Shown: one piece after another, positions 14,424-42,317 of the stretch | How positions within the stretch are numbered: position 1 is the first letter of the stretch | Layout: every line of letters starts with the position of its first letter | Source of the DNA: a virus | Lineage: Duplodnaviria > Caudoviricetes | Length of the DNA stretch: 64,000 bases | Strand: one strand, 5' to 3' | Virus record (IMG/VR): IMGVR_UViG_3300021256_002372 | Span: 61,540-125,539 of that record | Translations under genes and position numbers: made by a program | The notes under the pieces: generated by a model | Told to the model about the DNA's origin: nothing | Databases searched by the model: none | The model's input: only the letters and a program-made list of their open reading frames with translations

Positions 14424-14560
14424 CGATTATACAGTCTGTAGGTTCCGCTGACATTTGACGACAGCGCGGCGAAGAAATGACGACAAAACGGTTACGTCTA
14501 AAAGTAACATGAAATGCTGCAAAACGGTAACGCCCACATATTTCACAGGAGGTGATCTTA

Positions 14561-23446: not shown

Positions 23447-23591
23447 ACTGCCGCTGGCGGTCGCTTTCCAGCTCGTAGACCACCCGGTGGTGGTTCCGGT
23501 CGATCTGCTCAAGCAGGATGACATGGTCGCGCATGGCGGTCTTGAACTGTGCGCCCTTCTGGTAGTTGTTGATGATAACCTCGTACTTCAT
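23403..23591 (-). CDS. 62-aa hypothetical protein of an inverted orphan cassette
   Basis: Preceded on the minus strand by the array promoter module and ACGGAGGA RBS. Confidence 0.7.
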   Translation of the reverse strand: MKYEVIINNYQKGAQFKTAMRDHVILLEQIDRNHHRVVYELESDRQRQFIEKVYARKLRPLD

Positions 23592-23730
23592 ATCTGTATC
23601 CTCCGTGTTCTGTATTCAGTGGGGTTTCCCCCGTTCCGTTGTATCCATATTACCACGTTATCGGGGTAATAGCAAGCGGCTAAATGTACAGAACATCGGG
23701 CGCAGATAAAGCACATTCTTTGTGCAGATC
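23592..23730 (-). promoter_or_regulatory. Inverted copy of the array promoter module
   Basis: Minus strand reads TTCTGTACATTTAGCCGC-TTGCTA-N17-TAATAT-GGATACAACGG..ACGGAGGA. Confidence 0.85.
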
Positions 23731-25359: not shown

Positions 25360-26119
25360 AGTAAAATGCGTTCTCATACACGATAATTTCCAGAACTACA
25401 AAGGCTATAGCATTCCGAGGGCGCAGCTCGTCATAGCAGACATTCCGTACAACATCGGTAGCGACTTTTATGCCAGTCGCCCGGACTGGTATGTGAATGG
25501 TGACAATCAGAACGGCGAAAGCAGCAAAGCGCACAAGGCGGCATTCCACACCGACTACTCGTTCAATATTGCTGAGTATTTCGCATTCTGCAACCGGCTG
25601 CTCAAAAAGGAGCCGTCCAAAGGTGGAAAGGACGCTCCCTGCATGATCGTATTCTGTGCGTTTCAGCAGATACCGGAGGTCATCCGGCAGGCAGAGAAAT
25701 ACGGCTTCAAGCACTACCAGTTTTTGTGCTTTATGAAGAACTACAGTCCGCAGGTGCTGAAGGCAAACATGAGGATCGTGGGTGCTACCGAATATGCGCT
25801 GGTGCTGTATCGGGGCAAGCTGCCGAAGTTCCGCAATACCGATGTGGACGGCAAGCGGCACATGATCTTCGACCATTTCGAATGGGTGCGGGACGGCAAA
25901 GATATCCCGAAGATACATCCAAGCCAGAAGCCGGTGAATCTGCTGAAGCGCCTGATCGGAATATTTACCGATGAGGGTGATGTGGTCATCGACCCTTGCG
26001 CCGGTTCCGGCTCAACACTCCGTGCGGCACGGGAGCTTGGCAGACACAGCTACGGCTTTGAAGTCAGTAGAGATTTTTATATCAAAGCCCGTGAGCAGAT
26101 GCTCGGAGGTGCGGAATGA
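25346..26119 (+). CDS. N6/N4 DNA methyltransferase (DIPY variant)
   Basis: ADIPYN; HPSQKP; IDPCAGSGST. Confidence 0.88.
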   Translation: MLLSEVKCVLIHDNFQNYKGYSIPRAQLVIADIPYNIGSDFYASRPDWYVNGDNQNGESSKAHKAAFHTDYSFNIAEYFAFCNRLLKKEPSKGGKDAPCMIVFCAFQQIPEVIRQAEKYGFKHYQFLCFMKNYSPQVLKANMRIVGATEYALVLYRGKLPKFRNTDVDGKRHMIFDHFEWVRDGKDIPKIHPSQKPVNLLKRLIGIFTDEGDVVIDPCAGSGSTLRAARELGRHSYGFEVSRDFYIKAREQMLGGAE

Positions 26120-26963: not shown

Positions 26964-29123
26964 ATGGAACAGAGAAAACTGACCCTCGGCAGTCTGTTTG
27001 ACGGCTCCGGGGGCTTTCCGCTTGGCGGCATCCTCGCAGGGATCGAGCCGAAGTGGAGCAGTGAAATTGAACCGTTCCCGGTGCTTGTTACACACAAACG
27101 GCTTCCAGGCGTGAAGCATTACGGTGATGTATCCAAACTCAGCGGCGCAGAGCTGCCGCCTGTGGATATCATCACATTCGGCAGTCCGTGTCAGGACCTG
27201 TCGATCGCCGGCAAGCGTGCCGGAATCCATGACGGTGACCGGTCAAACCTGTTCTTTCAGGCGATCCGTATCATCAAAGAAATGAGGGATGCAACAAATG
27301 GACGATACCCGCGATACTGCGTCTGGGAGAATGTTCCCGGCGCTTTCTCCTCCCACGGAGGAGACGATTTCAAAGCTGTCCTCGAAGCAGTTATCGGAAT
27401 TAAAGAAGAAGGGATCGAGGTGCCTTCGCCTGAGAATCACCGATGGCCAAAGTCGGACATATATCTGGGAAACGGATGGAGCGTGGCTTACCGAGTTTTC
27501 GACGCTCAATACTGGGGTGTGCCCCAGCGAAGGGCAAGAATCTACCTTGTCGCAGATCTTGCTGGCGGAAGTGCCGGAGAAGTATTATTTAAGTCCGAAG
27601 GCATGTCTGGGTATACTCCGCAGGGCTTCCGTGCGTGGCAAGGAACTGCCGGAGGTGCTGAAGAAGGCGCTGGAGAGACAGGCGGGCGGTCTGACACTGG
27701 AGGTGGAACCCTCTGCGTAAACTGTCAGGGTACTTCCGGTGTCGGTATCACAGAGGAAATGGCACTCGCACTGGTCGCACAGGATCACGGCAATCATCCG
27801 GCGGTTCTTCATGCTGTCGGCATTGACGGCTACAACGCAGCGGTCACCGATGACACAGCGGCAACGCTCGGTGTGAACTGCGGGATGTCTACCGGAAGAA
27901 ACGGTGTCCTGCAGGCGGCAGGCTTTTCAACGGAACACAGCGCAAAGGCACGAAGCATCGGCTACGAGGAAGAGGTATCTCCCACACTGAGAGCCGGTGT
28001 CGTTCCGGCAGCACTCTCCGTGGAGAATCATCCGACAGACGGAAGAATCCGTATCCGTGAAGATGACACCTGCCAGACACTTTGCAGCAGAGCCGGGACA
28101 GGCGGCAATAATGTACCGCTTGTGGCAGAACCGATAACGCTGAAGATTCGCTGCGGTAAGCCAGGAGGCGGCAAAGGGGCGCAGGTCACTCGTGACAAAT
28201 CGTCTACACTATCTACCAACAACGACCAGACGCTCTTTCAGCCGGAGGTCAGGGCTTTCGGTGTATGCAGCAAGCATTCCAATGCGATGATGTCGGACAA
28301 CCCGCACAGCGGCTTTTACGAAGCGACAACAAGCAGAACGCTCGATCAGAGCGGCGGAAATTCCGTGACCTCGAATCAGGGCGGCATCTGCGTGGTAGCA
28401 CCTGCGCCGGAAACATTCGATGTACGTTTCACATCGGACGGCACAAAAAATGCCAGAGGGCATTGTTATCCGACCGAGATCTCCCGCTGTCTTGATACGA
28501 GTGAAGCAAACCCGGACAGCAATCACGGCGGCATTGCCGTTGTCGAGCCGGAAACCTATTCTCTGCAAGGCTCGATGATCGGTCGTGCTGACCAGAACGG
28601 TCCGCAGGGTGACGGCATTAACGAGGGCGTTTGCTTTACGCTGAATGCCACCGATCATCATGCGGTCGCTGCGCCGGAGCCTGACCATTATTCCACAAGC
28701 AAGAATTCCCATCATACCGTGGCGGCACATGAACAGGCAAACACGCTGGTCGCATCCGACTGGAAGGATCCGCCGCTCGTGAACGACCTTCCGAATGACG
28801 AGCCGGTGTATATCGTCCGCCGCCTGACTCCGGTGGAGTGCGCCCGCTTACAGGGATTCCCGGACTGGTGGTGCGCCGACCTTGCGATCCCCGATCCGAC
28901 CGATGCGGAGATCGCTTTCTGGGCTGAGGTATGGGAGACTTGGCGGCAGGTCACCAATCCCAAGGGCAAGCCGAAAACGGAAAAGCAGATCTGCAAATGG
29001 CTGTCTGATCCGTACACCGACTCCGCAGAGTACAAGCTGTGGGGCAACGGCGTGGCGCTTCCTTGCACTTATTTTGTGCTTTCCGGCATCGCATGGGCGG
29101 CGCAGAGAGATACACAAAAGTGA
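26964..29123 (+). CDS. DNA cytosine-C5 methyltransferase with expanded variable region
   Basis: FDGSGG, GSPCQD, WENVPG, QRRARIY, RRLTPVECARLQGFPD, WGNGV. Confidence 0.93.
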   Translation: MEQRKLTLGSLFDGSGGFPLGGILAGIEPKWSSEIEPFPVLVTHKRLPGVKHYGDVSKLSGAELPPVDIITFGSPCQDLSIAGKRAGIHDGDRSNLFFQAIRIIKEMRDATNGRYPRYCVWENVPGAFSSHGGDDFKAVLEAVIGIKEEGIEVPSPENHRWPKSDIYLGNGWSVAYRVFDAQYWGVPQRRARIYLVADLAGGSAGEVLFKSEGMSGYTPQGFRAWQGTAGGAEEGAGETGGRSDTGGGTLCVNCQGTSGVGITEEMALALVAQDHGNHPAVLHAVGIDGYNAAVTDDTAATLGVNCGMSTGRNGVLQAAGFSTEHSAKARSIGYEEEVSPTLRAGVVPAALSVENHPTDGRIRIREDDTCQTLCSRAGTGGNNVPLVAEPITLKIRCGKPGGGKGAQVTRDKSSTLSTNNDQTLFQPEVRAFGVCSKHSNAMMSDNPHSGFYEATTSRTLDQSGGNSVTSNQGGICVVAPAPETFDVRFTSDGTKNARGHCYPTEISRCLDTSEANPDSNHGGIAVVEPETYSLQGSMIGRADQNGPQGDGINEGVCFTLNATDHHAVAAPEPDHYSTSKNSHHTVAAHEQANTLVASDWKDPPLVNDLPNDEPVYIVRRLTPVECARLQGFPDWWCADLAIPDPTDAEIAFWAEVWETWRQVTNPKGKPKTEKQICKWLSDPYTDSAEYKLWGNGVALPCTYFVLSGIAWAAQRDTQK

Positions 29124-29385
29124 ACGCATAACGCGCCCGTTCTGAAAGCATCGGAAAATGCCGATTCTGCGCGCGTACTACTCTATTCAGATACACCTTG
29201 CAGCAAATTGTGAACGAAGTGATACTATGTAAACACTTCTTCTGGGGAATATCCGTGATATGCACAAACATCGGCGGATAATTCCCCCGTACATTCTCCG
29301 TTTTACAGTCTTGATTATTTTCCCGACATGGCGTAATATGTGACTACCGCCAGACAAGGCGAGAAACGAAAAGGAGCGTAAACAT

Positions 29386-30381
29386 ATGGAAATCAAGTAC
29401 AATATCGAAAAGAGCCAGCGCAAGGCACTGGCACAGAAGATCGCGGAGATCATCGGAGCTGAAGTCGAGTACCTTGGTGTTCCGAGCTGTGCCTATCAGA
29501 TCGACATCTTCACACTGAGCAAGGACGCAGTTCTCAGCTTCACCGACCGCAGCGACACCGAGATTGTGGAGAAGGTGCTGAACGGACTTGCAGAGGCGGG
29601 CTACACCAGCGAGACGGTAACCCCGCCGGAAGGCACGGAATCCACCCCCGACACTGAAGAGGACTATGTGGAGATCGATGTGACTATCGTCTCGGATACC
29701 GAGGAAGATATGCCGGACAACGATGATACCACCGATGTGAAAACTGATGCCGATGAGCCTGAGACCGAAACAGACGGATTCCCGATTGCAGTAACAGTTG
29801 CTCTTCCGCTGACCGACCATACTGTACAGAGCCTCACGAACCTCATCTGCATGATCCACTCACGAGGCGCACTTCTCAGCAAGTCGACTGGCGGACAGTT
29901 CTTCGCAGACAAGACGCTGGTGGATGAGATCGGCGGGCACGAGTTCCGCAGCATTTTAGAGCTGACTGCCTTCATCAAAGAGTGGGAGGAAACGAACCCT
30001 GAATTGCAGGGCATCCGCTTCGCCGATGACAAACTGATATTCGACGGATTCGGTCAGGCGGCAGATGCCGAGCACGCACAGGCATTCACCAAGCTCGCCG
30101 CAGCCATGAACCACATGGCGCTCACGCAGAAACGGGTACAGGCAAAGGATGTGGATGACAGCAATGAAAAGTACGCAATGCGCGTCTGGCTGGTACGCAT
30201 CGGCTTCGGCGGAGCAGACCACAAAACCGACCGCCACATTCTTCTGGAGCATCTGACCGGTCATTCCGCTTTCCGCAACGATGAGGAAAGGGCGAAGTGG
30301 CTGGAGCGCCAGAAGGCAAAGCGTGAAGCTGCCAAAGCCGAGCAGAACGAGGAGGGCAATGACGATGCAGTTTCCGGATGA
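29386..30381 (+). CDS. Phage 'virulence-associated'-type hypothetical protein with amidoligase-like C-terminus
   Basis: RKALAQKIAE..YLGVPSCAYQI; C-terminal NEKYAMRVWLVRIGF..LTGHSAFR. Confidence 0.75.
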   Translation: MEIKYNIEKSQRKALAQKIAEIIGAEVEYLGVPSCAYQIDIFTLSKDAVLSFTDRSDTEIVEKVLNGLAEAGYTSETVTPPEGTESTPDTEEDYVEIDVTIVSDTEEDMPDNDDTTDVKTDADEPETETDGFPIAVTVALPLTDHTVQSLTNLICMIHSRGALLSKSTGGQFFADKTLVDEIGGHEFRSILELTAFIKEWEETNPELQGIRFADDKLIFDGFGQAADAEHAQAFTKLAAAMNHMALTQKRVQAKDVDDSNEKYAMRVWLVRIGFGGADHKTDRHILLEHLTGHSAFRNDEERAKWLERQKAKREAAKAEQNEEGNDDAVSG

Positions 30382-30607
30382 ACGACAGCTCCAAGACCTG
30401 CGGAAGCGTTATCCCGCAGGCACACGCATCCGCCTGATCCACATGGACGATCCCTATGCGCCGGTTCCGGGCGGAACAGTCGGCGAGGTTCAGTACGTTG
30501 ATGATGCCGGCAACATCCACATGGTCTGGGAGAACGGCAGGACGCTTTCACTGATCGAAGGCGCAGACAGTTTCACCATTATCACCAATGACAAGGAGGC
30601 AGAATAA
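30365..30607 (+). CDS. DUF4314 domain protein
   Basis: YPAGTRIRLIHMDDPY..GTV..VDDAGNIHMVWENG..L. Confidence 0.85.
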   Translation: MQFPDERQLQDLRKRYPAGTRIRLIHMDDPYAPVPGGTVGEVQYVDDAGNIHMVWENGRTLSLIEGADSFTIITNDKEAE

Positions 30608-31023
30608 TGATCTACTTAGCCTACGGCTCAAATCTTCATATCGAACAGATGCAACGGCGATGCCCCACCGCCGAAGTCCTCGGCACGAGCACGCTCCACG
30701 GCTATCGACTGGTATTCAACAGCGTTGCGACAATAGAGCCGGATCCCGAACGCAGCGTCCCCGTCCTGCTCTGGGACATCAAGCCCGCCGACGAGACCCC
30801 GCTCGACCGCTACGAGGGTTATCCGCAACTCTACCGCAGAGAGACCGTTCAGGTCGAACTGGACGGCAAGACCGTCGATGCTATGGTCTACATCATGAAT
30901 CCAAAAGGAATCGCACCGCCCAGCCCTTATTATTACGATGTGATCCGCAAGGGCTATGAAATGAATGGACTGGACATAGCAGTGCTGGAACAGGCTCGGA
31001 TGGACTCCATCACCAAACGCTGA
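30607..31023 (+). CDS. Gamma-glutamylcyclotransferase family protein
   Basis: YLAYGSNL..QMQRRCP..LDRYEGYP. Confidence 0.9.
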   Translation: MIYLAYGSNLHIEQMQRRCPTAEVLGTSTLHGYRLVFNSVATIEPDPERSVPVLLWDIKPADETPLDRYEGYPQLYRRETVQVELDGKTVDAMVYIMNPKGIAPPSPYYYDVIRKGYEMNGLDIAVLEQARMDSITKR

Positions 31024-31257
31024 ACGCGCCACGTTCGCCCGTGTGGGGCTTTATAGGTATCCTCCGACAAGCTACCCCGTTTCAGTTTCCGCCCCACACG
31101 GCGCGTTTTACGGCGAGTCATATAATGAACAAATAACGGCGCAGAATCGCCCGATATGATCTCTACATTTAGCCGCTTGATAACCTCCGCAGGGTATGGT
31201 AATATGTCACACAACGGCAGGCGGATGCCCGCCAAACACCTGAACGGAGGAGATCAC

Positions 31258-31728
31258 ATGAACAAGAAGAGATACTACCTCGCATACGGAAGCAATCTGA
31301 ACCGCAAGCAGATGGAGATGCGCTGCCCCGGCGCAAAGCCCATCGGGACGGCACTGCTCGAAGGCTACGAGCTGCTGTTCAAGGGCAGCAAGACCGGTTT
31401 CTACCTGACCATTGAGCCGAGGGCGGACGGCGTGGTGCCGATCGCGGTCTGGGAGGTCACGGCGGAGCATGAGCGCCAGCTCGACCGCTACGAGGGCTGC
31501 CCCGTGTGCTATTATAAGAAGGAGATCCGGCTGCCGGTGTTCCGCACTGCAAGCGGTCGGACGATCCAGACAAATGGCTTTCTGTACATCATGAATCAGA
31601 TGCGGCGGCTCGGAGAACCGACACCAAGATATTTCTGGACTTGTGTACAGGGCTACCGGTCATTCGGATTCGATCCGGAATTCCTCTACGAAGCCTATGA
31701 ACGCAGTACGAGGCATCTGTACCGATAA
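31258..31728 (+). CDS. Gamma-glutamylcyclotransferase family protein
   Basis: YLAYGSNL..QMEMRCP..LDRYEGCP. Confidence 0.9.
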   Translation: MNKKRYYLAYGSNLNRKQMEMRCPGAKPIGTALLEGYELLFKGSKTGFYLTIEPRADGVVPIAVWEVTAEHERQLDRYEGCPVCYYKKEIRLPVFRTASGRTIQTNGFLYIMNQMRRLGEPTPRYFWTCVQGYRSFGFDPEFLYEAYERSTRHLYR

Positions 31729-32005
31729 GAAAAGCAGCGGCATGGCGGGGATCGCTCCCCGCTGTCCTGACCGCTGATTTTATACCTCACTGGGGGCCTC
31801 CGAAAATGAGAGATTCTATTCCATTGTATCCAAGTTTACCATAAAAATGCAAGGATATCAAGTATGTAAAAGTACCAGAGATACGGCAAAAATACACCGA
31901 AATGATCTGTACATTTAGCCGCTTGATATATCCTCCGAAAGACGGTAATATGTGACACAACGAAAGGCGCACAGCCTTCCGAAAACCGAAACGGAGGATA
32001 CAAAA

Positions 32006-32950
32006 ATGACTGAGAAGACCGCACAGCAGATCGCAAGAATGAAGGAGCAGACCATTGGGGTGGAGGTCGAGATGACCGGCATCACCCGCCGCGCTGCCGC
32101 AAAGCTCGCCGCCGAGTTCTTTGGCACCGACCACTACGAGAACACCGCAGGGCGCAACGGCTACAGCACCTGGAGCGCATGGGACACGCAGGGGCGCGAG
32201 TGGAAGTTTATGAGCGACGGCAGCATCCACGCGCAGAACGGCGAGGCCTGCGAGATGGCGACCCCGATCCTGACCTACGCAGACATCGAGACCTTGCAGG
32301 AGCTGATCCGCCGCCTGCGCAAGGCGGGCGCCAAGAGCGACTACACCCTCGGATGCGGAGTCCATGTTCACATCGGCGCGGCGGGACACACACCGCAGAG
32401 CCTGAGAAACCTTGCGAACATCATGGCGAGCCACGAAACGCTGATCGCCGAAGCGATCAAGGTCGACAGCGGCAGGATGCGCCAGTATTGCAGAACGGTC
32501 GACCCGAATTTCCTTGAGCAGCTCAACCGCAAAAAGCCCACCACGATGGCAAAGCTCGCGGACATCTGGTACACCTCGCAGGGATGCACCTACGGCAGAA
32601 CGCACCACTACAACAACAGCCGCTACCACATGCTGAACCTGCACGCGACCTTCACCAAGGGCACGGTGGAATTCAGACTTTTCCAGTTCGACCCGCCCAT
32701 GAACGGCAAGAAGAACGGGCTCCACGCAGGCAAACTCAAGAGCTACATTCAGCTTTGCCTCGCAATGAGCCAGATGGCAAAGGATGTGCGGAGCGCAAGC
32801 CCCAAGGAACAGCAGAAGGAAAACAAAAAGTTCGCGATGCGGACTTGGCTGATGCGGCTGGGCTTCATTGGCGAGGAGTTCGAGACAGCGCGGCAGGTCC
32901 TCACGGAAAACCTTACCGGCGACAACGCATTCCGCTTCGGCAGACCTTGA
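32006..32950 (+). CDS. Putative amidoligase (COOH-NH2 ligase family)
   Basis: IGVEVEM, SDGSI, CEMATP, CGVHVHIG, RYHMLN, TVEFRLF. Confidence 0.9.
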   Translation: MTEKTAQQIARMKEQTIGVEVEMTGITRRAAAKLAAEFFGTDHYENTAGRNGYSTWSAWDTQGREWKFMSDGSIHAQNGEACEMATPILTYADIETLQELIRRLRKAGAKSDYTLGCGVHVHIGAAGHTPQSLRNLANIMASHETLIAEAIKVDSGRMRQYCRTVDPNFLEQLNRKKPTTMAKLADIWYTSQGCTYGRTHHYNNSRYHMLNLHATFTKGTVEFRLFQFDPPMNGKKNGLHAGKLKSYIQLCLAMSQMAKDVRSASPKEQQKENKKFAMRTWLMRLGFIGEEFETARQVLTENLTGDNAFRFGRP

Positions 32951-33144
32951 CGGGTCTGCCCTGCGGGGCGGATGCAAAACAAAACGGCACGGGCGCGCAC
33001 AAAGCGCCCCACGCCGCGCCGTGTGGGGCGGAAAGGGTATCCTCCAAATCGGTATCCCATCTCAGTCGACCGCGCCACACAACGCGACACGGCGCAAATG
33101 TGGGCAAAGCCCAGATCATCCAAAAAAGAACAGGAGGAATCCAA

Positions 33145-33348
33145 ATGAAAGAACGAGTTTTTGAAAAGCGTACATGCCCCAAGTGCGGATGCACCTACAC
33201 CGAGCGTCCCGCCCTTTCCCGACATGACAACGCAACGCTGATCTGCCCCGACTGCGGCACGAGAGAAGCCCTCGAAAGCATGGGAATCAGCGTCGAGGAG
33301 CAGGACAAGATCCTTGGGATCATCCACGACAAGTACAACGGCGAATAA
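33145..33348 (+). CDS. Small zinc-ribbon protein
   Basis: CPKC..PALSR..ICPDCGTREAL; AGGAGG RBS. Confidence 0.75.
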   Translation: MKERVFEKRTCPKCGCTYTERPALSRHDNATLICPDCGTREALESMGISVEEQDKILGIIHDKYNGE

Positions 33349-33599
33349 GGGGCGCACAGTGGGCGGTGTGGGGCTTCACGGCCCTGCGCCGCTTGTTTGT
33401 TGGGAGAATTCCGGGCGCGACACAGGGCAGATGTGAGCATCCTGTGGGCATTGTGACTATGTACCTGAATATAAGCATAAAACAGCGGTATGTTCTACCT
33501 TGAAAATTGCAGAAAGGCGTGGACTTTTCGGGGGTTTAGAGTTAATATGTGTCATGCCGAAAGGCACGAATCACCTACATTTTCAAGGAGGATACCACC

Positions 33600-34205
33600 A
33601 TGAGATTCCTGAACGAGCATACTCGAATCCTGCACGGCAGACACCCCATTGACATGAACGACCGCACCGGCGAACGCACCGCTGCGGAGCTTGCCCTGCC
33701 CGACAACTTTTCCGACAAGGCGAAGGCCTGCTGGGAATACTACAAGGGTGCGGCATACATTTTCGAGTACAAGGGCCGCTTGGTCATCACCGATGAGAGC
33801 CTTTACCTCACCGACCACGGGGACGGCTCACACAGCGCGCCCTTCGGCGGACCCCGCTGGGTCTGCGATTCATGGGAAGATGTCGAGCGAAACTTGGAGC
33901 AGAACTACGACGAGGTCGCCGATCCGGAACTGAACAGCGGCATCGAGCCGACCGCCGACGAGCGCCACATCATGCGCCTGAACGCAAATGGCGTCATCAT
34001 CAGATACCCTAACGGCAAAAGCGAACCGGTCACCATGAAATTCTACTATGACACGATCAGGTTCCTTGCGGAGGACGGCAATGCGGTTACGACCTACCCC
34101 ATTGAGCTGCCGGGCATCCCCGGTGATTTCACCCTTGCGATCTGGCGGAACGGTCATGCGGACAGCGGCTCGACCGAGCGAATCATGGCGGTCATTGACC
34201 GCTGA
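33600..34205 (+). CDS. Hypothetical cassette protein
   Basis: Own promoter and AAGGAGG RBS. Confidence 0.7.
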   Translation: MRFLNEHTRILHGRHPIDMNDRTGERTAAELALPDNFSDKAKACWEYYKGAAYIFEYKGRLVITDESLYLTDHGDGSHSAPFGGPRWVCDSWEDVERNLEQNYDEVADPELNSGIEPTADERHIMRLNANGVIIRYPNGKSEPVTMKFYYDTIRFLAEDGNAVTTYPIELPGIPGDFTLAIWRNGHADSGSTERIMAVIDR

Positions 34206-34466
34206 CAGCGCACACAGCGGGCGGTGTAGGGCTTCACGGCTCTGCGCCGCTTGTTTGTTGGGCGGATTTCGGGCGCGACACGGCGCATTTGTGAGCCTCC
34301 TGTGGGGCGTTGGTATATGTACCAGTTATAACGGCGAAAATCGGCGATTCTTCTACGATTTATTTTGCACATAGGCGTGGACTTTTCAGGCAAAAGGCGG
34401 TAATATGTGACACAACGGAAGGGCGGACAGCCCACCGGAATTCAAACCAACACGGAGGAAACGAGC

Positions 34467-34937
34467 ATGAACACTACTTATTTTGATGAGATGACCTTCA
34501 ACTGCGCCGCATACGAGCGCGCAAAGAAGGAGCGAGAAGAGCGCAAGGCTCAGATTGCCAAAGTCCACGGCTACAACAGCCCGGAGATGGACGCATGGTA
34601 CGCCGAGGATAAGGCGGCAGGACCTTACCCCTACAGCGCCGGCGAGATGAAAGCCTACTGGGTTTTCAAGTTCCGCCGTGAGAATAATGCTGATGAGTTC
34701 GAGATGAGCGACTACTGCTGGGACAAGGAATTTCACGATTTTGTGGAAACGCTTCGCAAGCTGGGCATTACCGAATTCACAATCACCAACCACAGCACGG
34801 CGCTGATGGAAAACATCTACGGCTTTATCGCCGAAGGCTGTACGATGGAGGGAACGCACACCATTACCAAGAAAGCACGGCGCTGGGCTGCGGAGGACTA
34901 CGAACAAGTGATGGGCATCCGATTCAAGGTGAACTGA
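34467..34937 (+). CDS. Hypothetical cassette protein, family X copy 1
   Basis: EFEM..DFVETLRKLGITEFTIT..STAL..GC..GIRF; own promoter. Confidence 0.75.
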   Translation: MNTTYFDEMTFNCAAYERAKKEREERKAQIAKVHGYNSPEMDAWYAEDKAAGPYPYSAGEMKAYWVFKFRRENNADEFEMSDYCWDKEFHDFVETLRKLGITEFTITNHSTALMENIYGFIAEGCTMEGTHTITKKARRWAAEDYEQVMGIRFKVN

Positions 34938-35003
34938 ACAAAACCGCAAAGGGGCGGGCTTCACCGCCTGCCCCACAAGCGGAGCAGAAAGGAGGTATGT
35001 GGA

Positions 35004-35156
35004 ATGGCAAGAATCGTGATCGTGGTCGAGGGCGGTCTGGTGCAGGAAGTTTTCAGCAGCGAAAAAGACACGGATGTCACCGTGATCGACCTTGATACCG
35101 AAGAGGGACAGGCTGCGGAACCTGAAACGGAAATGCCGGAATTCAAGGTGTGGTAA
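35004..35156 (+). CDS. 50-aa hypothetical protein (not in ORF track)
   Basis: AAAGGAGG RBS; MARIVIVVEGGLVQEVFS..VIDLD..W*. Confidence 0.6.
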   Translation: MARIVIVVEGGLVQEVFSSEKDTDVTVIDLDTEEGQAAEPETEMPEFKVW

Positions 35157-35299
35157 GAAGTACATACTACACAAGATCTCACGCAGATACGCTCGAAATG
35201 ATCTGTACATTCAGCCGCTTGATATCGTGCGGAAACAGAGTTATAATGTCGCTACCGAAGGGAAAACCTCGGAATTACATTCTTTTGGAGGATACGAAA

Positions 35300-35734
35300 A
35301 TGGCAGACTACAACATGAACGGCTGCAAGGTGCGCTTTCGCATCGCAGACTACGCTTCCGACCCGATGGTCATGGCGATCACCGCGACCGCAGAGGATGA
35401 CGAGTTCGATGTGGTGCTTTCGGTCAACATCGGCAGCAGCATCGGCAACGGCACGCTGATCCCTCGCAACTGCGCCTTCATCGACACCAACAACAATCCG
35501 ACCGCAGAGGACTTCCTGCGGAGCATCGGTGCAAAGCAGTACGAACGCTTCGGAGAGCCGGTCTACGGATACAGCGGATTCTGCCGCTACCCGCTTTACG
35601 AATTTTCGGATGACCTTCTTATGGAAATGGATGCGGACGGCTACGAAAAACACTGCAAAAGCTACGGCGGAGCCTTCCTGATGGTACAACGCAGAATGAA
35701 CGCAGAGGTGTTCGGCGCAGACCTTTTTGGATAA
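35300..35734 (+). CDS. Hypothetical cassette protein (DUF4313-like)
   Basis: SVNIG..AFIDTNN..SGFCRYPLYEF. Confidence 0.65.
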   Translation: MADYNMNGCKVRFRIADYASDPMVMAITATAEDDEFDVVLSVNIGSSIGNGTLIPRNCAFIDTNNNPTAEDFLRSIGAKQYERFGEPVYGYSGFCRYPLYEFSDDLLMEMDADGYEKHCKSYGGAFLMVQRRMNAEVFGADLFG

Positions 35735-35922
35735 ATCGCAAGCTGGGTGCAGCCCCTTCGGGGGCTGTTCTCCTGCATGGCTTTATGTACAAGAAACCGC
35801 ACAGATACTCCGAAAATGATCTGTACATTTACCCGCTTGCTATTCGGCACAGGGTATGGTAATATGTGACACAACGGAAGGGCGGACAGCCCGCCGAATA
35901 CAAAACACGGAGGAATACCACC

Positions 35923-36417
35923 ATGAAAACCCTGAAGATTTACAACACCCTGATCGCCCAGATCGCAAGCGACAGCACCTGCATCACCGCTCCGGTCGAG
36001 GACTACGCTTCCGAGCTGTTCGATGCGCTGGAGAAGGACGGCACCGACCTCGCCGAGTACGCTGGCGACTACCACGGTGCGACCTATTACAAGAAGCTCC
36101 GCAAGATCACGATGAGCGCCGAGTGGGTCGGCAGCAAGCTCTACGGGCTTGCCACCTGCGAGGTCGAGGATGACTGGACGGACGACGATACCGCACAGCT
36201 CAAGGAGTACCTCACCGGGCAGTACAGCGACGGCTGGGGCGAGGGTTTCGAGCAGCGCGAGATCGACAGCTACACTGACACCGAGACCTGCGAGGAGTAC
36301 GATGCCGAGGAGGACGAGTACTACGAAAGCGAGTGGGATGTGCGCTGCTTCGTTTACGTTTCCTTCTGGCAGGACAAGAACTTCCGAATCATGACCGAGG
36401 CAGAGCTGAAGGGCTGA
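35923..36417 (+). CDS. Acidic hypothetical cassette protein
   Basis: LKEYLTGQYSDGWGEGFEQREI; own promoter. Confidence 0.75.
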   Translation: MKTLKIYNTLIAQIASDSTCITAPVEDYASELFDALEKDGTDLAEYAGDYHGATYYKKLRKITMSAEWVGSKLYGLATCEVEDDWTDDDTAQLKEYLTGQYSDGWGEGFEQREIDSYTDTETCEEYDAEEDEYYESEWDVRCFVYVSFWQDKNFRIMTEAELKG

Positions 36418-36614
36418 GCAGAAAGGGGCAGGGCTTCGGCTCTGCTCCGATCATTCCACGCTGTGTACATCTGACAATTCATAAGCCTGAAAACGGCGAT
36501 TCTTCTACTTTTTATTTTGCACATAGGCGTGGACTTATCTGCAGGATCATGGTAATATACAACACAACGGCAAGGGCAGAACGCCCGCCGAATATAAAAC
36601 TGGAGGACAAGAAC

Positions 36615-36995
36615 ATGAGCACGAATTCGAGAATCGGCATCCTGCACGACGACGGCACCACGGAGACCATCTACTGCCACTGGGACGGCTACCCGGAGCA
36701 TCAGATGCCGATCCTGACCAAGCACTACGACACCGCCGAGAAGGTCAAGGCGCTGCTTGCACTCGGTGACATCAGCATCCTCGGCGAGCGCCTTGCACCC
36801 AATGCAGACGAGCCGCACAGCTTCGAGAATCCGGCGGAGGGTGTGACGGTCGCCTACCACCGCGACCGCAAGGAGCCGATGAGCCCGGCGGTCACCCACA
36901 AGAGCATCGTTTCCCTGATGCGTGCCGACTGGGGCATCCCTTACTACTACCTCTTCGATGAGCAGAAGGGACACTGGCTGCCGCCGACCGAGTAA
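36615..36995 (+). CDS. Hypothetical cassette protein
   Basis: STNSRIGI..IYCHWDGYP..YHRDR..YYYLF; own promoter. Confidence 0.75.
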   Translation: MSTNSRIGILHDDGTTETIYCHWDGYPEHQMPILTKHYDTAEKVKALLALGDISILGERLAPNADEPHSFENPAEGVTVAYHRDRKEPMSPAVTHKSIVSLMRADWGIPYYYLFDEQKGHWLPPTE

Positions 36996-37277
36996 TAACG
37001 GGGCGGGCTTGCCCCACGTTCGCCCGTGTGCGGTTTTCCTGCGGTGAGCGATGAACTTGCCCATGCGGAAAACCGCCCCACACGGTCGAGGACACAGGCT
37101 CTGTGTGCGTTCTGGTGCCGCCCGTGGGCTTGGTGCTATGTGTACAACAAATAGCGCAGATCCGCCGATTTTGTTCTGTACATTTAGCCGCTTGCTATTT
37201 GGAAAAGATCATGGTAATATGTGACACAACGGAGGGGAAGACAGCCCGCCGAAAACAAAACACGGAGGTAAACCACC

Positions 37278-37643
37278 ATGACCAAGAAGAAGCTGAACGA
37301 GATCAAGACCACCCTGAACTTCCTGCGCAACGGCAGAGCCGCCACCGAGCAGATGACCGATGAGACCTGCCTTGAGGTCTACGGCATTTCCAGAGCGCAG
37401 GCACTCGCAAACATGGACAGCAGCATCGCAAAGTACGAGCGCGAGCTGGAGAGAGCCGAGCATCCGCTGACCGGCATCGACAAGCAGCTCTACGACATTG
37501 CCGCCAAGCACATGGTCATTGTGCAGGAGCGCGGAGACCTGGAAGCCCGCCACTGCGACAGCGAGGACTTCATCGAGGTTCCGGTCTGGGGACTGGAAGC
37601 CGCCCTCAAGGACGCCTACGAGGCAGGACGCAAGAGCAAGTAA
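37278..37643 (+). CDS. Hypothetical cassette protein, family Y copy 1 (DUF6900-like)
   Basis: IAAKHM..LEARHCDSEDFIEVPVWGLEAALKDAYEAG. Confidence 0.75.
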   Translation: MTKKKLNEIKTTLNFLRNGRAATEQMTDETCLEVYGISRAQALANMDSSIAKYERELERAEHPLTGIDKQLYDIAAKHMVIVQERGDLEARHCDSEDFIEVPVWGLEAALKDAYEAGRKSK

Positions 37644-37705
37644 AACCGAACGGCGACCCCTTCCTGAAATACGGAAGGGGCAATGCCGGAAAAGGAGAAA
37701 CCGAA

Positions 37706-37882
37706 ATGGATACATACGCACAGCTCGAGATGCTGACGGCGGTCATTGCCAATCTTTCTGTTACCGGGGTCTGGTCGGAGCGTGATGTGATGGAAACGCT
37801 TCTGGAGGTCTTTGAGCCGAAGGAGCTTGAACAACTCGGCTACGGCGACCGGATCGATGCCTACCTGAAAGAGTTCGGCTGA
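37706..37882 (+). CDS. 58-aa hypothetical protein (not in ORF track)
   Basis: AAAGGAG RBS; MDTYAQLEML..YLKEFG*. Confidence 0.6.
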   Translation: MDTYAQLEMLTAVIANLSVTGVWSERDVMETLLEVFEPKELEQLGYGDRIDAYLKEFG

Positions 37883-38127
37883 TCGCCCACAACGCACCAC
37901 GTTCGCCTGTGTGGGGCTTTTCATGGCGGCAGCGGATAACTTGCCACTGCAGAAAACCGCCCCACACGGCGCGACTGTGCGCGTTCTGTGCGATGTACAA
38001 TTCCGCCTGAAATATCGGCACATGTTTGGTACATTTATTTTGCGAAAAGGCGTGGACTTATTGCGGAAAAAGAGTTAATATGTCAATACCGCCAGACAAG
38101 CGGAATCAAACAAAGGAGCGAATCTAC

Positions 38128-38481
38128 ATGAAAATTCTGGTATGCGAACCCGGCAAGCACCCCTACGTCAAGGACATCGAACACACCCTTGAAAACCTTC
38201 AGGCGGAAGTGGACGGCTACATTCAGGCAATCTACCCCTTCGAGGAACAGGTCGGTGTAATCGTGAACGAGGAAGGGCTGTTCCGCGATGACCTCGCATG
38301 GAACAGAACGGTCGAGAAGTACGGACCGATCAAGGGAACCTTCTTCGTGTGTGGGCTGGGCTTCGAGGATTTCACGGGGCTGACCGATGAGCAGATCGAA
38401 AAGTACAAGGCACTCTTCTGGGAGCCGGAGATCTTCATCCCGACACCGAACGGCATGGTGGTACTTCACATCATCGACTGA
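38128..38481 (+). CDS. DUF3846 domain protein
   Basis: LENLQAEVDGYIQ..IVNEEG..NR..IKGTFFVCG..FTGLT. Confidence 0.8.
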   Translation: MKILVCEPGKHPYVKDIEHTLENLQAEVDGYIQAIYPFEEQVGVIVNEEGLFRDDLAWNRTVEKYGPIKGTFFVCGLGFEDFTGLTDEQIEKYKALFWEPEIFIPTPNGMVVLHIID

Positions 38482-38536
38482 AAAAACGGCGGGGCTGCCC
38501 TTCACCGGGCAGCCGAATGCCGAAAGGAGAAATTAC

Positions 38537-38914
38537 ATGGATATCAGTTACACATTTGAACAGATGGATCGTAACATCTACGAACGCAAAAGCAATGGTC
38601 AGAAGTCGGGCTACAGCCTCGGTGCAAGAAAAGCTCTGTGGAACTACAAGGACAGCAAGCGTCACAACAGCAGCGAATTTGAGGTCACCGACCTTCCGAG
38701 CGAGTCCGACATGGAGGATTTTCTCTCCACGCTACGCATCGCAAAAGTTACAACCTTCGTGGTCACTGCAAAAAGCACCGCACTGATCGAGGCGCTCCAC
38801 CAGATGCGCAGGCTTGGATGCACGGTCTACGGGCTGGATACCATTACCCGCAACGATACGGAATACCACGTCATGGATGACTACGAGGTCGAAGGCATCC
38901 GCATTATGTTGTGA
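38537..38914 (+). CDS. Hypothetical cassette protein, family X copy 2
   Basis: EFEV..DFLSTLRIAKVTTFVVT..STAL..GC..GIRI. Confidence 0.72.
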   Translation: MDISYTFEQMDRNIYERKSNGQKSGYSLGARKALWNYKDSKRHNSSEFEVTDLPSESDMEDFLSTLRIAKVTTFVVTAKSTALIEALHQMRRLGCTVYGLDTITRNDTEYHVMDDYEVEGIRIML

Positions 38915-39122
38915 AATCATAAGGGCAGAGCTACGGTTCTGCCCCACCTCCGCACCGGTTTCCGGTGCTGTTTTTGTCCGTCATAATATGTACAATTCCT
39001 GCGGAAATACGCCGATCTTGTTCTGTACATTTAGCCGCTTGATAGTTTTCCAAAGGTATGGTAATATGTGACACAACGGAAGGGCAAAGCCCACCGGAAT
39101 ACAGAACACGGAGGAATCCACC

Positions 39123-39485
39123 ATGAACTTTTTTGAAACTGAGCTGAAGAAGATGACCGCGAAGGTCGCCGCCCTGAAGAATCCCAAGCTGGTCGGCAGA
39201 GCCTGCATTGCCCGCCTGACTGACACGACGACGGTCAAGGCAACCTTTACAACGCTTGGGGTTTCGGAGCATTACCCTGCGATCCGGATCACGCTCCTGA
39301 ACAGAAGCGAGGGTAAGATTGACGAGATCGTCATTCGCTTTAGCGACCACTGGACAGGCAAGGATGCCATTCACGCATGGACAGACCGCGGAAAAACCGA
39401 TTGGTACGCCTACCACCCAACCGCAGCGGACTACACCAAGATCGCAAAGGCGATCAGCGACTACCTTGAAAACTTCGCCGACTGA
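39123..39485 (+). CDS. Hypothetical cassette protein
   Basis: MNFFETELKK..; own promoter and RBS. Confidence 0.72.
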   Translation: MNFFETELKKMTAKVAALKNPKLVGRACIARLTDTTTVKATFTTLGVSEHYPAIRITLLNRSEGKIDEIVIRFSDHWTGKDAIHAWTDRGKTDWYAYHPTAADYTKIAKAISDYLENFAD

Positions 39486-39537
39486 AAACCGAGCCGCCCT
39501 TCTCCGGAGGGGCGGCATCCCTGAAAGGAGCGCATAC

Positions 39538-39717
39538 ATGGATACCAAAACAGAAAAGGCACTGGAGCAGATCGCAATGGAAGAGAGCCTTGTGCTTGCG
39601 GAGCACGGCGGGCTAGACTTCCGGGGCATCGACAACGACCTCGCTGAGGTCAGCATTATGACGCTCCGCATGATGCTGGCAAGAGCCTACGAGCTGGGCA
39701 GGAACATCAAGCCCTGA
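39538..39717 (+). CDS. Hypothetical cassette protein, family Y copy 2
   Basis: LEQIAME..GLDFRGIDNDLAEVSIMTLRMMLARAYELG. Confidence 0.65.
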   Translation: MDTKTEKALEQIAMEESLVLAEHGGLDFRGIDNDLAEVSIMTLRMMLARAYELGRNIKP

Positions 39718-39953
39718 TTCGCGCCACGTTCGCCCGTGTGGGGGCTTACGGTATTTCTGCGGATCACTTGACCATGCGGATAACCGCCCCACACGGCGCG
39801 TTCTGGCGCGTTTTACGCAGTCCGGCAAAAGCACCAGAACACAGACGCCATATTCGTGCAGTATTCCACTTGAATTTAGCCGCAAAAGACGGTAACATTG
39901 GACTACCGCCGGGGCTGCTGCCCTGCGGAATCTACACATTGGGAGGTCCTGAT

Positions 39954-40328
39954 ATGGACAAAAACTTGATCGAATACTTTGATATTGTCAAGGAATCGTA
40001 CATCGACAAGGATGGGAACGAGATCCCCGGCGCTCTGAATGAAGGTGCAATTCACGCGGTACACTGCTTCGACAACAGCCTGCTGGACGAAGCCGATCGC
40101 TTTGAGGTTGCGGAACTTCCGAGGGCTGATCAGGCGGATGACTTCCTCGACATTATCAAGCATTCGGGCGTAAAGGAGATCGCCGTGACTGCAGAAGAAG
40201 GACTGCTCGCCTTTTTGCAGGCCGCCTACTCGTTCGGCTGCAAGGTCGGCGGTGTATGCAATGTGGTCCGTCACCCCTACAGCAATGTGCCGCCGACGGT
40301 CATGCGCGGTATCCTCGTTCAGTTCTGA
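39954..40328 (+). CDS. Hypothetical cassette protein, family X copy 3
   Basis: RFEV..DDFLDIIKHSGVKEIAVT..GC..GILV. Confidence 0.68.
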   Translation: MDKNLIEYFDIVKESYIDKDGNEIPGALNEGAIHAVHCFDNSLLDEADRFEVAELPRADQADDFLDIIKHSGVKEIAVTAEEGLLAFLQAAYSFGCKVGGVCNVVRHPYSNVPPTVMRGILVQF

Positions 40329-40635
40329 TCCGCAGTTATCACGAGCACAGCCCCTTCCAAGGGGCTGTTCTCAATACGGCCCTCTGGTTTGCGCCACGTT
40401 CGCTTGTGTTGGGGCTTCCGGCATTCTTGCGGATAACTTGCCCGAGCGAAAAGGCGCCACACACGGCGCGTTCTGGCGCGTTTTACGGCAAGGCATATTG
40501 TACACAACAAACCACCAAATATAGCCCGAAATGATCGTGATCACTCACTATTGCTATATGTGCGAAACAGAGTTATACTGTTTACAACGGAACAGGATAC
40601 CGAGCCGAAAATTACGAAAGAACGAGGTAAACACG

Positions 40636-40860
40636 ATGTGGACACAGGGCGTTATCAACTATAACGGGAAGGCTTACCGCTACAGCGTAAAGCACTTCGA
40701 GGAGCCGAGCGTCTTTGGGTACGAGGAGGGCAGAGCCTCGAAGATCTGGATCCAGCGGGACGGCATCGAGGTTTTCAACTTCGACCGGGGCATGGACAGA
40801 GAGCCGGCAGACGCAGATACCAAGGCAGTCCTTCAGATGCTCCTCGACAAGTTCAACTGA
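40636..40860 (+). CDS. Small hypothetical cassette protein
   Basis: VKHFEEPSVFGYEEGRASKIWI..NFDRG. Confidence 0.72.
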   Translation: MWTQGVINYNGKAYRYSVKHFEEPSVFGYEEGRASKIWIQRDGIEVFNFDRGMDREPADADTKAVLQMLLDKFN

Positions 40861-40925
40861 GCAGAACAAACGGCGGGCGGCAGCAAAAAGCCGCCCATCC
40901 GTCCCACAGTAAGGAGGTGAAGCGG

Positions 40926-41189
40926 ATGGGAGCGATCAGTGAGTTATACCGTGGCAGGATCAGCGCACCGACAGACATCAAGGTCAGGGCAGATCAATAC
41001 GCTGAACTGAATGCCCGTGCAGATACGCTGTACTGTCAGATTTCAGATGCGCTGACGGCAGATACGGGGAGTGCGTTGGAGGAACTCATCGACATACACC
41101 GGCAGATGGAATCGATCACCTCGGAGGACAGCTACACGAGGGGCTTTCGTGCCGGCGCAAGACTGATGCTGGATATGCTGGAGCCATAA
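40926..41189 (+). CDS. Small hypothetical protein (DUF6809-like)
   Basis: ISELYRGRI..SYTRGFRAGARLM. Confidence 0.65.
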   Translation: MGAISELYRGRISAPTDIKVRADQYAELNARADTLYCQISDALTADTGSALEELIDIHRQMESITSEDSYTRGFRAGARLMLDMLEP

Positions 41190-41384
41190 ACAAGGTACAT
41201 ACTCCTCAGCCCGCTTCGGCGGGCTTTCCTTATCCCATCGTAAAATGTACACTATCCACCAGATAAAAAAGTACATCTCTGGTAGTATTATTCGTTGACT
41301 TATCGCCGAAAAGACGGTAATATGTACACAACGCAAGGGGCAAAGCCCACAAGCGAAAAACAACGAGATCTGGAGGAAAAGAAC

Positions 41385-41729
41385 ATGATCAGCTACGGAA
41401 TGGCACTGGCAAGAGCAAAGGCAGCAAAGAGCAACTGGAACGAGGAAGAGTACATCACGAAGGCGGTCATCACCTGGGCGGATGCCGACTACGAGAACGA
41501 GCTTGAGATCGAAAACGACGGCTGCAGCGACGAGGAGTTCGAGGCTTGGATCGAGCAGAACGCCGAGGAGCTTGCAAAGAAGGCGGCCGCCGAGCAAGGC
41601 ACGACCTTCGAGGAGCTGGTAGGCATCGACTACGAAACGGACACCTACGACGATGACGAGGCCTTTTACGACGCCTACCTTGACGCCTGCGACGCCGAGG
41701 GAGACTACTACAGGGAGATGGGCTGGTAA
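41385..41729 (+). CDS. Highly acidic hypothetical cassette protein
   Basis: Very Asp/Glu-rich; own promoter and GGAGG RBS. Confidence 0.7.
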   Translation: MISYGMALARAKAAKSNWNEEEYITKAVITWADADYENELEIENDGCSDEEFEAWIEQNAEELAKKAAAEQGTTFEELVGIDYETDTYDDDEAFYDAYLDACDAEGDYYREMGW

Positions 41730-41837
41730 GCAGCCCACCCCATTACATACAGCAGCGGAGCCGAGAGGTTCCGCTTTTGTTTGTCAGAAAAACTGTCTTG
41801 TGGACAGTTTTCGGGCCATGAGAATTTGAAAGGAGTG

Positions 41838-42317
41838 ATGCAGATGGCTCAAAGAGGCAGAAAACCAAAGCCCACAGCGATCAAAGAGCTGGAAGGCAAT
41901 CCGGGCAAGCGTCCGCTGAATGATGCAGAACCGAAGCCTGTAAAGAAAGCACCGCCCTGTCCGAAGTGGCTGGAGCCCGAAGCGAAAAAGGAATGGCGCA
42001 GGCTGTCGAAACAACTTGAAGCGATCGGTGTGCTGACCGAGGTAGATCAGGCGGCATTCGCATCTTATTGTCAGGCATACGCCCGTTGGAAGGAAGCCGA
42101 GGAATTCATGACGCAGCACGGCACGATCGTAAAAACAAAATCCGGCTACTGGCAGCAAGTGCCGCAGGTCAGCATTGCACAGACCTATCTGAAAATCATG
42201 AACAAGATTGCGGAGCAGTTCGGTCTGACCCCGGCGGCAAGAAGCCGTATCACTGCCGGTGCAGATATGAAGGACGCTGCCGTTGACGATATGGATGCAC
42301 TTCTGGGAGGTGGATGA
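41838..42317 (+). CDS. terS: Terminase small subunit, P27 family
   Basis: GRKPKPTAIKELEGNPGKR..FGLTPAARSRI. Confidence 0.93.
   Translation: MQMAQRGRKPKPTAIKELEGNPGKRPLNDAEPKPVKKAPPCPKWLEPEAKKEWRRLSKQLEAIGVLTEVDQAAFASYCQAYARWKEAEEFMTQHGTIVKTKSGYWQQVPQVSIAQTYLKIMNKIAEQFGLTPAARSRITAGADMKDAAVDDMDALLGGG

Follow-up and report, generated by a model that had tools for sequence, protein, structure and literature searches.

An array of 14 repeated promoter-leader modules, each heading small cargo genes, in a tailed phage provisionally assigned to Ca. Heliusvirales

Structure of the array

The array described here occupies positions 29124-41780 of a 64,000-nucleotide stretch (the window), which is the second half (61540-125539) of the 125,539-bp IMG/VR virus record IMGVR_UViG_3300021256_002372. 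It is bordered by a block of methylase genes (ParB-N6 methylase, 24088-25359; N6 methylase, 25280-26119; C5 methylase, 26964-29123) on one side and by packaging genes, beginning with terS (Terminase_4; 41838-42317), on the other. Fourteen predicted promoters on the + strand, all with a spacer of exactly 17 bp between the -35 and -10 boxes, divide the region into units (29.3-41.4 kb) of one to three genes. A first-pass annotation of the window had recognised the promoters and their spacing, six different -35 boxes (TTGATA, TTGCTA, TGGACT, TTGACT, TTGATT and TTGAAT) and one to three short genes per unit, all of which were borne out.

Each promoter is embedded in a module of ~130 bp. The module comprises an upstream element, either (T)GTACATTTAGCCGC or a B variant of it, the -35 box, the spacer, an extended -10 (G at -14, then a TAATAT-type hexamer), a leader hairpin, an A-rich spacer, the (AC)GGAGG ribosome-binding site and the ATG start codon; direct-repeat analysis revealed similarity reaching well beyond the hexamers. 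Two versions of the upstream block exist, A (ATGATCTGTACATTTAGCCGC) and B (TTTATTTTGCACATAGGCG). Eight of the 14 promoters have GGTAATAT as the -10, and the others CG/GT-TAATAT, TATAAT, TAACAT or TATACT. The leader contains GTGACACAACGG or ACTACCGCC, with ACAACG in about 9 of the 14 leaders and a second flavour, ACTACCG(CC), in four to five. GTGACACAACGG is present in four exact copies and two with one mismatch, so that the earlier statement that it follows most promoters was correct as to the sequence, but overstated its frequency. The conserved upstream parts of the module are a TGTACA dyad and a TTTAGCCGC element. TGTACA is enriched (28 copies versus 9 expected). It occurs before A-type promoters as pairs separated by 35-36 bp, and the upstream part can be written as a TGTACA-N30-TGTACATTTAGCCGC element.

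The strict pattern T[TG]GNNN-17-TAATAT has 11 copies on the + strand (29311-41295) and one on the - strand (at 23675), and three extra copies were identified through -10 variants (35219, TATAAT; 39870, TAACAT; 40551, TATACT). TKG-N20-TAATAT occurs 12 times in the window, versus 0.48 +/- 0.67 times in shuffles. A profile hidden Markov model constructed from the copies and run on the whole 125.5-kb record matched only sites in the array and the - strand copy. The latter is an inverted 15th module (23403-23720, - strand; TTGCTA-17-TAATAT at 23675-23647) driving an open reading frame (orf) of 62 amino acids (aa; 23591-23403). The product of this orf is basic and has no family match, and the orf shares 44 bp with the 3′ end of nrdG.

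Modules and cargo genes

All modules and cargo genes of the array are on the + strand, and the first coordinate given for each promoter is the start of its -35 box. Module 1 (29266-29385; TTGATT-17-TAATAT at 29311-29339, with a ACTACCGCC-type leader hairpin and an AAGGAG ribosome-binding site) precedes three genes (29386-31023), encoding an amidoligase-related protein of 331 aa (PHROG 2443), a DUF4314 protein (30359-30607) and a GGACT/AIG2 cyclotransferase (30607-31023). Module 2 (31132-31257; A-type, with the upstream sequence TACATTTAGCCGC; TTGATA-17-TAATAT at 31177-31205) heads a gene for a second GGACT cyclotransferase (31258-31728), and module 3 (31878-32005; A-type, promoter at 31923-31951) heads genes (32006-33348) for an Amidoligase_2 protein (32006-32950) and a 67-aa Zn-ribbon protein (33145-33348). 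Modules 4 and 5 are the two copies of a direct repeat. The first (33349-33599) consists of a terminator-like hairpin and a B-type promoter (TGGACT-17-TAATAT at 33520-33548) and is followed by a gene for a 201-aa orphan protein (33600-34205), and the second (34206-34466; B-type, promoter at 34378-34406) by a DUF7698 gene (34467-34937), a hairpin and a 50-aa acidic orf (35004-35156), together making up the cargo of unit 5 (34467-35156).

Module 6 (35174-35299; A-type, TTGATA-17-TATAAT at 35219-35247) is followed by a DUF4313 gene (35300-35734), module 7 (35792-35922; A-type, TTGCTA-17-TAATAT at 35837-35865, TGTACA pair at 35786/35822) by a gene for a 164-aa acidic protein with no family (35923-36417) and module 8 (36485-36614; B-type, promoter at 36530-36558) by a gene for a 126-aa protein belonging to PHROG 1987, a family of unknown function (36615-36995). 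Unit 9, with an A-type module (37147-37277; promoter at 37192-37220, TGTACA pair at 37141/37177), contains a DUF6900 gene (37278-37643), a hairpin and a 58-aa acidic orf (37706-37882; whole cargo 37278-37882). In unit 10 (cargo 38128-38914), a B-type module with an ACCGCC-type leader (38008-38127; TGGACT-17-TAATAT at 38053-38081) precedes a DUF3846 gene (38128-38481), a hairpin and a second DUF7698 gene (38537-38914), and in unit 11 (cargo 39123-39717) an A-type module (38994-39122; promoter at 39039-39067, TGTACA pair at 38989/39024) precedes a gene for a 120-aa protein, a hairpin and a short DUF6900 gene (39538-39717).

Module 12 (39825-39953; TTGAAT-17-TAACAT at 39870-39898) heads a gene for a 124-aa orphan protein (39954-40328). 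Module 13 (40506-40635; TTGCTA-17-TATACT at 40551-40579) is the weakest copy, falling under the profile threshold, and its cargo (40636-41189), a DUF7678 gene (40636-40860), a hairpin and a DUF6809 gene (40926-41189), adjoins terS in nearly all relatives. Module 14 (41250-41384; TTGACT-17-TAATAT at 41295-41323) heads a gene for a very acidic protein of 114 aa (29% D+E; 41385-41729), which is found at a minimum of three different array positions among relatives.

Cargo families identified with Pfam and PHROG include two GGACT, two DUF7698 and two DUF6900 members, with several proteins lacking a family, and 19 of the 22 cargo proteins have an isoelectric point below 5.7. Pairs of amidoligase and GGCT genes have been reported in Clostridium prophages (PMC11318856). 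A DUF3846 homologue forms part of a 590-aa protein annotated as ArdA, encoded beside conjugative-transposon genes on a Vescimonas plasmid; literature searches for DUF3846, DUF4313, DUF4314, DUF6900 and DUF7698 returned nothing relevant. Judged from sequence, it is plausible, and probable, that the cargo genes encode host-takeover or anti-defence proteins. The three paralogous pairs are what might be left behind if one ancestral promoter-gene unit had been duplicated in tandem and the genes of the copies had then diverged. However, most of the cargo is unrelated in both sequence and Pfam family, and the modules are 60-90% identical to one another while the cargo genes share no identity, making this the least probable of the explanations considered here.

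Hairpins at gene ends

Strong GC hairpins follow nearly every gene of the array. Those between the first and second genes of a unit at ~34950, 37655, 38490, 39495 and 40875, all noted in the first-pass annotation, do fold strongly (z -2.2 to -4.4). Five units end in an imperfect hairpin of 90-100 nt, from a family with conserved ends and variable centres (CCACGTTCGCCCGTGTGGGG...CCCCACACGG). One copy is at 31024-31122 (+ strand), with homology blocks shared with relatives starting or ending at its edges, and the others are at 37006-37095, 37887-37990, 39714-39817 and 40384-40487. An intrinsic-terminator-like hairpin followed by a T run (41754-41785, + strand) closes the array before terS. Most gene-end hairpins have no U run and so may serve in processing or stabilisation instead of termination. 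An Rfam scan of 23.0-42.5 kb (E <= 1) gave one sub-threshold small RNA match only and no known RNA family.

Distribution and conservation of the module

Relatives were reached only through an exact pattern and the profile; 50,697 phage records searched with the whole region (megablast) and with a single module (blastn) gave no match. The exact 20-mer GGTAATATGTGACACAACGG was found in 57 stretches of viral contigs and in 8 contig stretches from rumen or gut metagenome-assembled genomes (MAGs) labelled Ruminococcus, Oscillospiraceae or Clostridia, and all carriers have same-strand arrays, with up to 12 modules, between a C5 methylase gene and terS. A degenerate A-type pattern matched at least 117 viral stretches, compared with 4 when the spacer was made one base longer. 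More than 60 related viral contigs have an array between the C5 methylase gene and terS, with 7-14 promoters each. The profile (150 columns) gathered 513 modules (374 unique) from 160 loci with G+C contents of 40-56%, this number of loci being a lower bound.

In the 374 unique modules a G at -14, TTG, TAATAT, GGAGG and ATG are near-invariant, and conservation is unusually strong in the element that immediately precedes the -35. The leader hairpin that had been proposed for this phage was found in all 159 unique leaders of relatives that were folded. In these it lies 13-16 nt downstream of the -10, predicted to begin roughly 6 nt from the 5′ end of the transcript, and 35 different inner helices occur. 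These structures were obtained by folding each sequence separately and tallying the helices; RNAalifold applied to a MAFFT alignment of 15 leaders gave no structure, loops of unequal length having been misaligned.

Ruminococcus phage NatCom_23091 (PV036433.1; Candidatus (Ca.) Heliusvirales, 43% G+C) carries four clustered modules (E = 1e-16 to 1e-10) between genes for a ParB-methylase and terL, amid amidoligase, GGCT and DUF3846 genes; its DUF3846 protein is 52% identical to that of the array. This accessory region has the same genome position, cargo types and module as the array described here, but differs in G+C content and in having four modules only. Tiny CDSs (coding sequences) annotated as ‘hypothetical protein’ in its GenBank entry overlie or abut modules (40333-40434, 39213-39347 and 38164-38253, corresponding to 6313-6414, 7400-7534 and 8494-8583 of locus L067), and are probably annotation artefacts. 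No module was found in Faecalibacterium phage FP_oengus, which belongs to another lineage and carries DUF3846, indicating that the module tracks lineage, not cargo. In the paper describing the Heliusvirales lineage (PMC11283538) the words promoter, intergenic and variable region are absent and intergenic repeats are not mentioned.

Predicted transcription of the array

The -35/17/-10 geometry and the G at -14 suggest that the modules are read by the host primary sigma factor, sigma-A. The phage also encodes two adjacent sigma factors of the extracytoplasmic function (ECF) type (763-1536 and 1724-2572, + strand), which are probably middle or late regulators. If one of these recognised the modules, the array would be under the control of middle or late promoters instead of early ones dependent on host sigma-A. 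Both proteins pass the cut-off for the sigma70-ECF superfamily (TIGR02937; 53 and 48.5 bits versus 42.9), NatCom_23091, which has the module too, encodes a weak region-4 relative, and conservation just upstream of the -35 is unusually strong. Nevertheless, the geometry of the boxes and the near-invariant G at -14 are of the primary sigma type, ECF promoters normally have GAAC/CGTC-type boxes, and a terminator closes the array before the late terS operon. Sigma region 3, the part that reads the TG of an extended -10, is missing from ECF sigma factors, which further disfavours phage factors of this type, and we consider it quite unlikely that they drive the array. Sequences that stabilise mRNA at its 5′ end are known in Bacillus, and the leader hairpin may, by analogy, act in the same way.

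Cassette turnover and junctions

After clustering of the proteins encoded at all loci, every locus was represented by a string of its modules and gene families. The stretch between the shared flanks has 14 promoters in 14.9 kb in this phage and 7 in 9.6 kb in relative L026. The 66 loci gave 63 distinct gene strings, and 54 different unit compositions were recognised. Homology blocks shared with this phage end almost exclusively in intergenic DNA. Counted from the -35, block ends form one cluster at -37 to -57, one over the -10 (+14 to +21) and one spanning the ribosome-binding site to the ATG (+66 to +78), with further clusters at stop codons and at the edges of 3′ elements. Relatives thus differ in the number and content of units between the same flanks, with junctions in repeat zones, in line with the suggestion in the first-pass annotation that these are recombinable, separately promoted cassettes resembling the promoter-stem-loop (PeSL) cassettes of T4-type phages.

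One such junction, in L044, is about 99% identical to the module at 34378 through the -10 and, from the -10 onward, is colinear with the module at 35837 and its cargo, two cassettes of this phage being missing there. The two alignments overlap over the common segment from the -10 to the ribosome-binding site. Chimeric promoters are also apparent, with A-type or B-type halves found before the same cargo family in different phages (7/7, 4/9, 4/11 and 6/2). For example, the upstream half preceding the 126-aa cargo gene of unit 8 is A-type in seven relatives and B-type in seven, and that preceding the 164-aa cargo gene of unit 7 is of either type depending on the phage. The type of upstream half follows the upstream gene in 182/208 cases and the downstream cargo in 174/208, and as it tracks the upstream gene slightly better most crossovers appear to lie downstream of the -35. 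The 201-aa orphan gene of unit 4 is present only in this phage, flanked by direct repeats of ~200 bp, and at this site relatives have one repeat copy and no gene. Identity is also mosaic, with jumps at modules, falling for example from 93.8% to 80.4% in comparison with L048 at module 39039. Across orthologous junctions the non-coding module is 89% identical, versus 84-85% for the flanking genes.

That the module is conserved as much as, or more than, coding DNA could also be explained by regulation alone, if the repeats were kept for a single regulator (recognising the TGTACA dyads and TTTAGCCGC) and for the polymerase, and differences in cassettes arose by ordinary recombination. Retention of the module across lineages of 40-56% G+C, the enrichment and regular spacing of TGTACA and a largely conserved gene order would all fit. 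Regulation alone does not account for junctions that cluster within the module rather than across intergenic DNA, for the chimeric promoters or for the repeat-flanked orphan cassette, and is in our view an unlikely explanation when taken by itself. The two readings are compatible, not exclusive, as regulation can explain conservation of the module and the resulting homology would then make recombination unavoidable.

Proposed function and mode of exchange

The array and its relatives display a repeated architecture, its conservation and the footprints of recombination. These are best explained, with a probability of roughly 0.7, by a hyperplastic accessory region of self-contained expression cassettes that are exchanged through the repeated module and transcribed independently via the host primary sigma factor. 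Under this explanation, the module would make each unit an independent and strongly expressed transcript, read by host sigma-A probably early in infection, with the 5′ hairpin stabilising the mRNA and the 3′ hairpins insulating or processing it. As the same module recurs 14 times, it would at the same time supply homology for general recombination among cassettes and between co-infecting relatives, by which, as the comparative footprints show, whole cassettes are deleted, inserted or replaced while genes and their expression are left intact. Most crossovers fall within the stretch that the modules share between the -10 and the ribosome-binding site, so that the upstream promoter half tends to remain with the gene before it. 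Candidate proteins for this exchange found in the record are a DUF2800 nuclease and an Enc34-type single-stranded DNA (ssDNA)-binding protein only; no dedicated recombinase is evident, and these two proteins or the host machinery may act.

Several observations weigh against this explanation or parts of it. Gene order is ~98% conserved, with the minority order seen in 48 of 2788 pair observations, and the genes that move are the acidic 114-aa gene, the 164-aa/DUF4313 gene pair and one further family. ‘Shuffling’ is therefore mostly presence or absence, and ordinary recombination between collinear genomes might give much of the pattern without selection on the module. Some variation falls within units, away from promoters (family strings 6 7 24 versus 6 24, and 8 versus 8 5), and breakpoints were read from the ends of BLAST blocks, which are blurred within repeats. 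RecT, YqaJ and serine recombinase families were searched for in the record and none was found. Dependence on sigma-A is predicted from the promoter consensus and the two ECF-type sigma factors could in principle read the promoters, a generic terminator scan was not enriched (16 versus 14.5 expected), and most of the cargo has no known function. Thus, of the variation in cassette number and order that had been anticipated, number and content do vary, with junctions at repeat zones, but order is largely fixed, and turnover is by gain, loss and replacement through homologous recombination rather than by integron-type insertion or free permutation.

The first-pass annotation had described the layout as integron-like with no visible array integrase. 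In a true integron-like system the long 3′ hairpins would be attC-like sites and cassettes would be moved by tyrosine recombinases, three of which are encoded in the record (7547-11223). The 90-100-nt elements at some cassette 3′ ends, with their conserved ends and variable centres, and the homology blocks that begin and end at their edges are suggestive of such sites; no junction at a fixed base was seen. However, the TIGR02249 scores of the recombinases (58.8, 44.6 and 40 bits) are far below the integron-integrase cut-off of 265, and their genes are 18 kb away from the array on the opposite strand, in a low-GC island. The long 3′ element is present in only 5 of the 14 units, each cassette has its own promoter, order is conserved instead of depending on history, and crossovers map to promoter homology. 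An integron of this kind is very improbable. The array was not accepted as an integron, as no IntI is encoded beside it and the cassettes are not promoterless. The earlier description was thus right in that no integron integrase is present, but the analogy is weak given the individual promoters and the stable order.

The tyrosine recombinase genes (380, 325 and 563 aa) are in tandem on the - strand and their products are generic Xer-like proteins. The island has a G+C content of 40-42%, compared with 51.5% for the window, and looks like an inserted recombinase-trio mobile element.

Genome setting and lineage

In addition to the DUF2800 nuclease and Enc34-type protein, the window encodes PolA, an SNF2 helicase, a D5 primase, MetK, NrdD/NrdG, a portal protein, a ClpP protease and an HK97-type capsid protein. 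Pfam matches to all seven members of the marker set of Ca. Heliusvirales (PMC11283538) were found in the genome. On sequence grounds, the phage can provisionally be considered a Ca. Heliusvirales-type tailed phage of rumen or gut Clostridia. Hints to the host come from the presence of the module in MAG contigs from Oscillospiraceae and Ruminococcus and in a Ruminococcus phage, which agree with the Clostridial host class given in the first-pass annotation.

A perfect 9-bp inverted repeat (AAAACTGTC-N5-GACAGTTTT; 41789-41811, + strand) lies between the array terminator and the terS ribosome-binding site and is a candidate late-activator or packaging-related site. The terL gene (42314-44983, + strand) encodes a protein of 889 aa with a LAGLIDADG domain at residues 304-371, and tblastn gave a match in two pieces (72% identity) to Streptococcus phages of the phi-m46.1 type, making an intein or a homing-endonuclease insertion likely. 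Between terL and the portal gene is a gene with a PAPS-reductase domain (44987-46015, + strand), whose counterpart in NatCom_23091 adjoins the portal gene of that phage. A group II intron-type protein with reverse transcriptase, maturase and HNH domains is encoded between the portal and ClpP protease genes (48182-49972, + strand), in a stretch of 41.8% G+C. A gene for a MazF/PemK-type toxin (14552-15019, + strand) is found within the replication module, directly upstream of the D5 primase gene.

Comparison with known systems

Repeat-mediated exchange of cassettes has been described for T4-type phages with Gram-negative hosts and for one cyanophage, and no PeSL-like report for Firmicutes phages was found in full-text literature searches. 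PeSLs, functionally the nearest match to the array, are repeated elements of ~100 bp, found in the hyperplastic regions of T4-type phages, that consist of a sigma-70 promoter and a GC stem-loop and for which mini-circles have been described (Arbiol et al. 2010, PMC2839356; Comeau et al. 2014, PMC4122927); crossovers fall between the -10 and the ATG (PMC2839356). The array shares with them a repeated primary-sigma promoter and GC stem-loops concentrated among small ORFan genes, insertions, deletions and replacements bounded by repeats, crossovers between the -10 and the start codon, and the lack of a known dedicated recombinase. It differs in forming one contiguous array of 14 units instead of many scattered regions, in a conserved part that extends into the transcript (5′ hairpin, A-rich spacer and ribosome-binding site) and upstream (TGTACA dyad and TTTAGCCGC), in having two interchangeable upstream halves and in its largely fixed gene order. 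The phage is also of HK97 type and Ca. Heliusvirales-like, with a Gram-positive Clostridial host, and its genome background (HK97-type terS/terL, portal, ClpP and capsid genes plus a PolA/DUF2800 replication set) is not that of a T4-type myovirus. The different phage lineage and host phylum, a module that reaches into the leader and a single, ordered array mark it as an analogue of PeSLs and not a homologue, a judgement made on genome background.

The closest Firmicutes parallel for many strong promoters before small early genes is the host-takeover module of Bacillus phage SPO1, which in PMC6873191 (citing Stewart et al. 1998) is given as 12.4 kb long, its 26 small early genes being grouped in operons whose promoters and ribosome-binding sites are strong. 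Size, the number of small, mostly acidic proteins, the many strong sigma-A-type promoters and ribosome-binding sites, and presence in a Firmicutes phage are common to both. SPO1, however, is a lytic myovirus with the module in its terminal redundancy, and the source describes neither a shared ~130-bp module nor repeat-mediated exchange for SPO1. Like integron arrays, the array consists of ordered small unrelated genes separated by a repeated hairpin-forming sequence and varies in cassette number, but it has no IntI or attI, its genes have their own promoters, exchange is by homology instead of at a fixed site and order is conserved among relatives. Phage morons are likewise autonomous units of promoter, small gene and hairpin, but they have no conserved flanking sequence in common and are believed to be acquired through illegitimate recombination (PMC2839356), while the flanks here form one conserved family.

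Implications

The array appears to follow the same logic as PeSLs, evolved independently, in a very widespread phage lineage of gut and rumen Clostridia. The 150-column profile locates the starts of genes that are probably early accessory genes in contigs from uncultured phages and exposes mis-annotated mini-ORFs in a GenBank genome. The ~50 families of small, mostly acidic proteins are candidates for host-takeover and anti-defence screens, and the arrays offer a natural system for examining how much homology, and which enzymes, drive turnover of accessory genes in temperate gut phages. More tentatively, the module may be a lineage-wide ‘plug’, a promoter-leader adaptor that a dedicated phage or host factor recognises via TGTACA/TTTAGCCGC or the leader hairpin, which would activate a set of anti-defence genes as infection begins and also let phages 15% apart in G+C content trade ready-to-express cassettes. 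If so, one of the most prevalent orders of human gut phages would possess an equivalent of the integron without a recombinase, and the module profile could be used directly to mine uncultured phages for early anti-defence genes.

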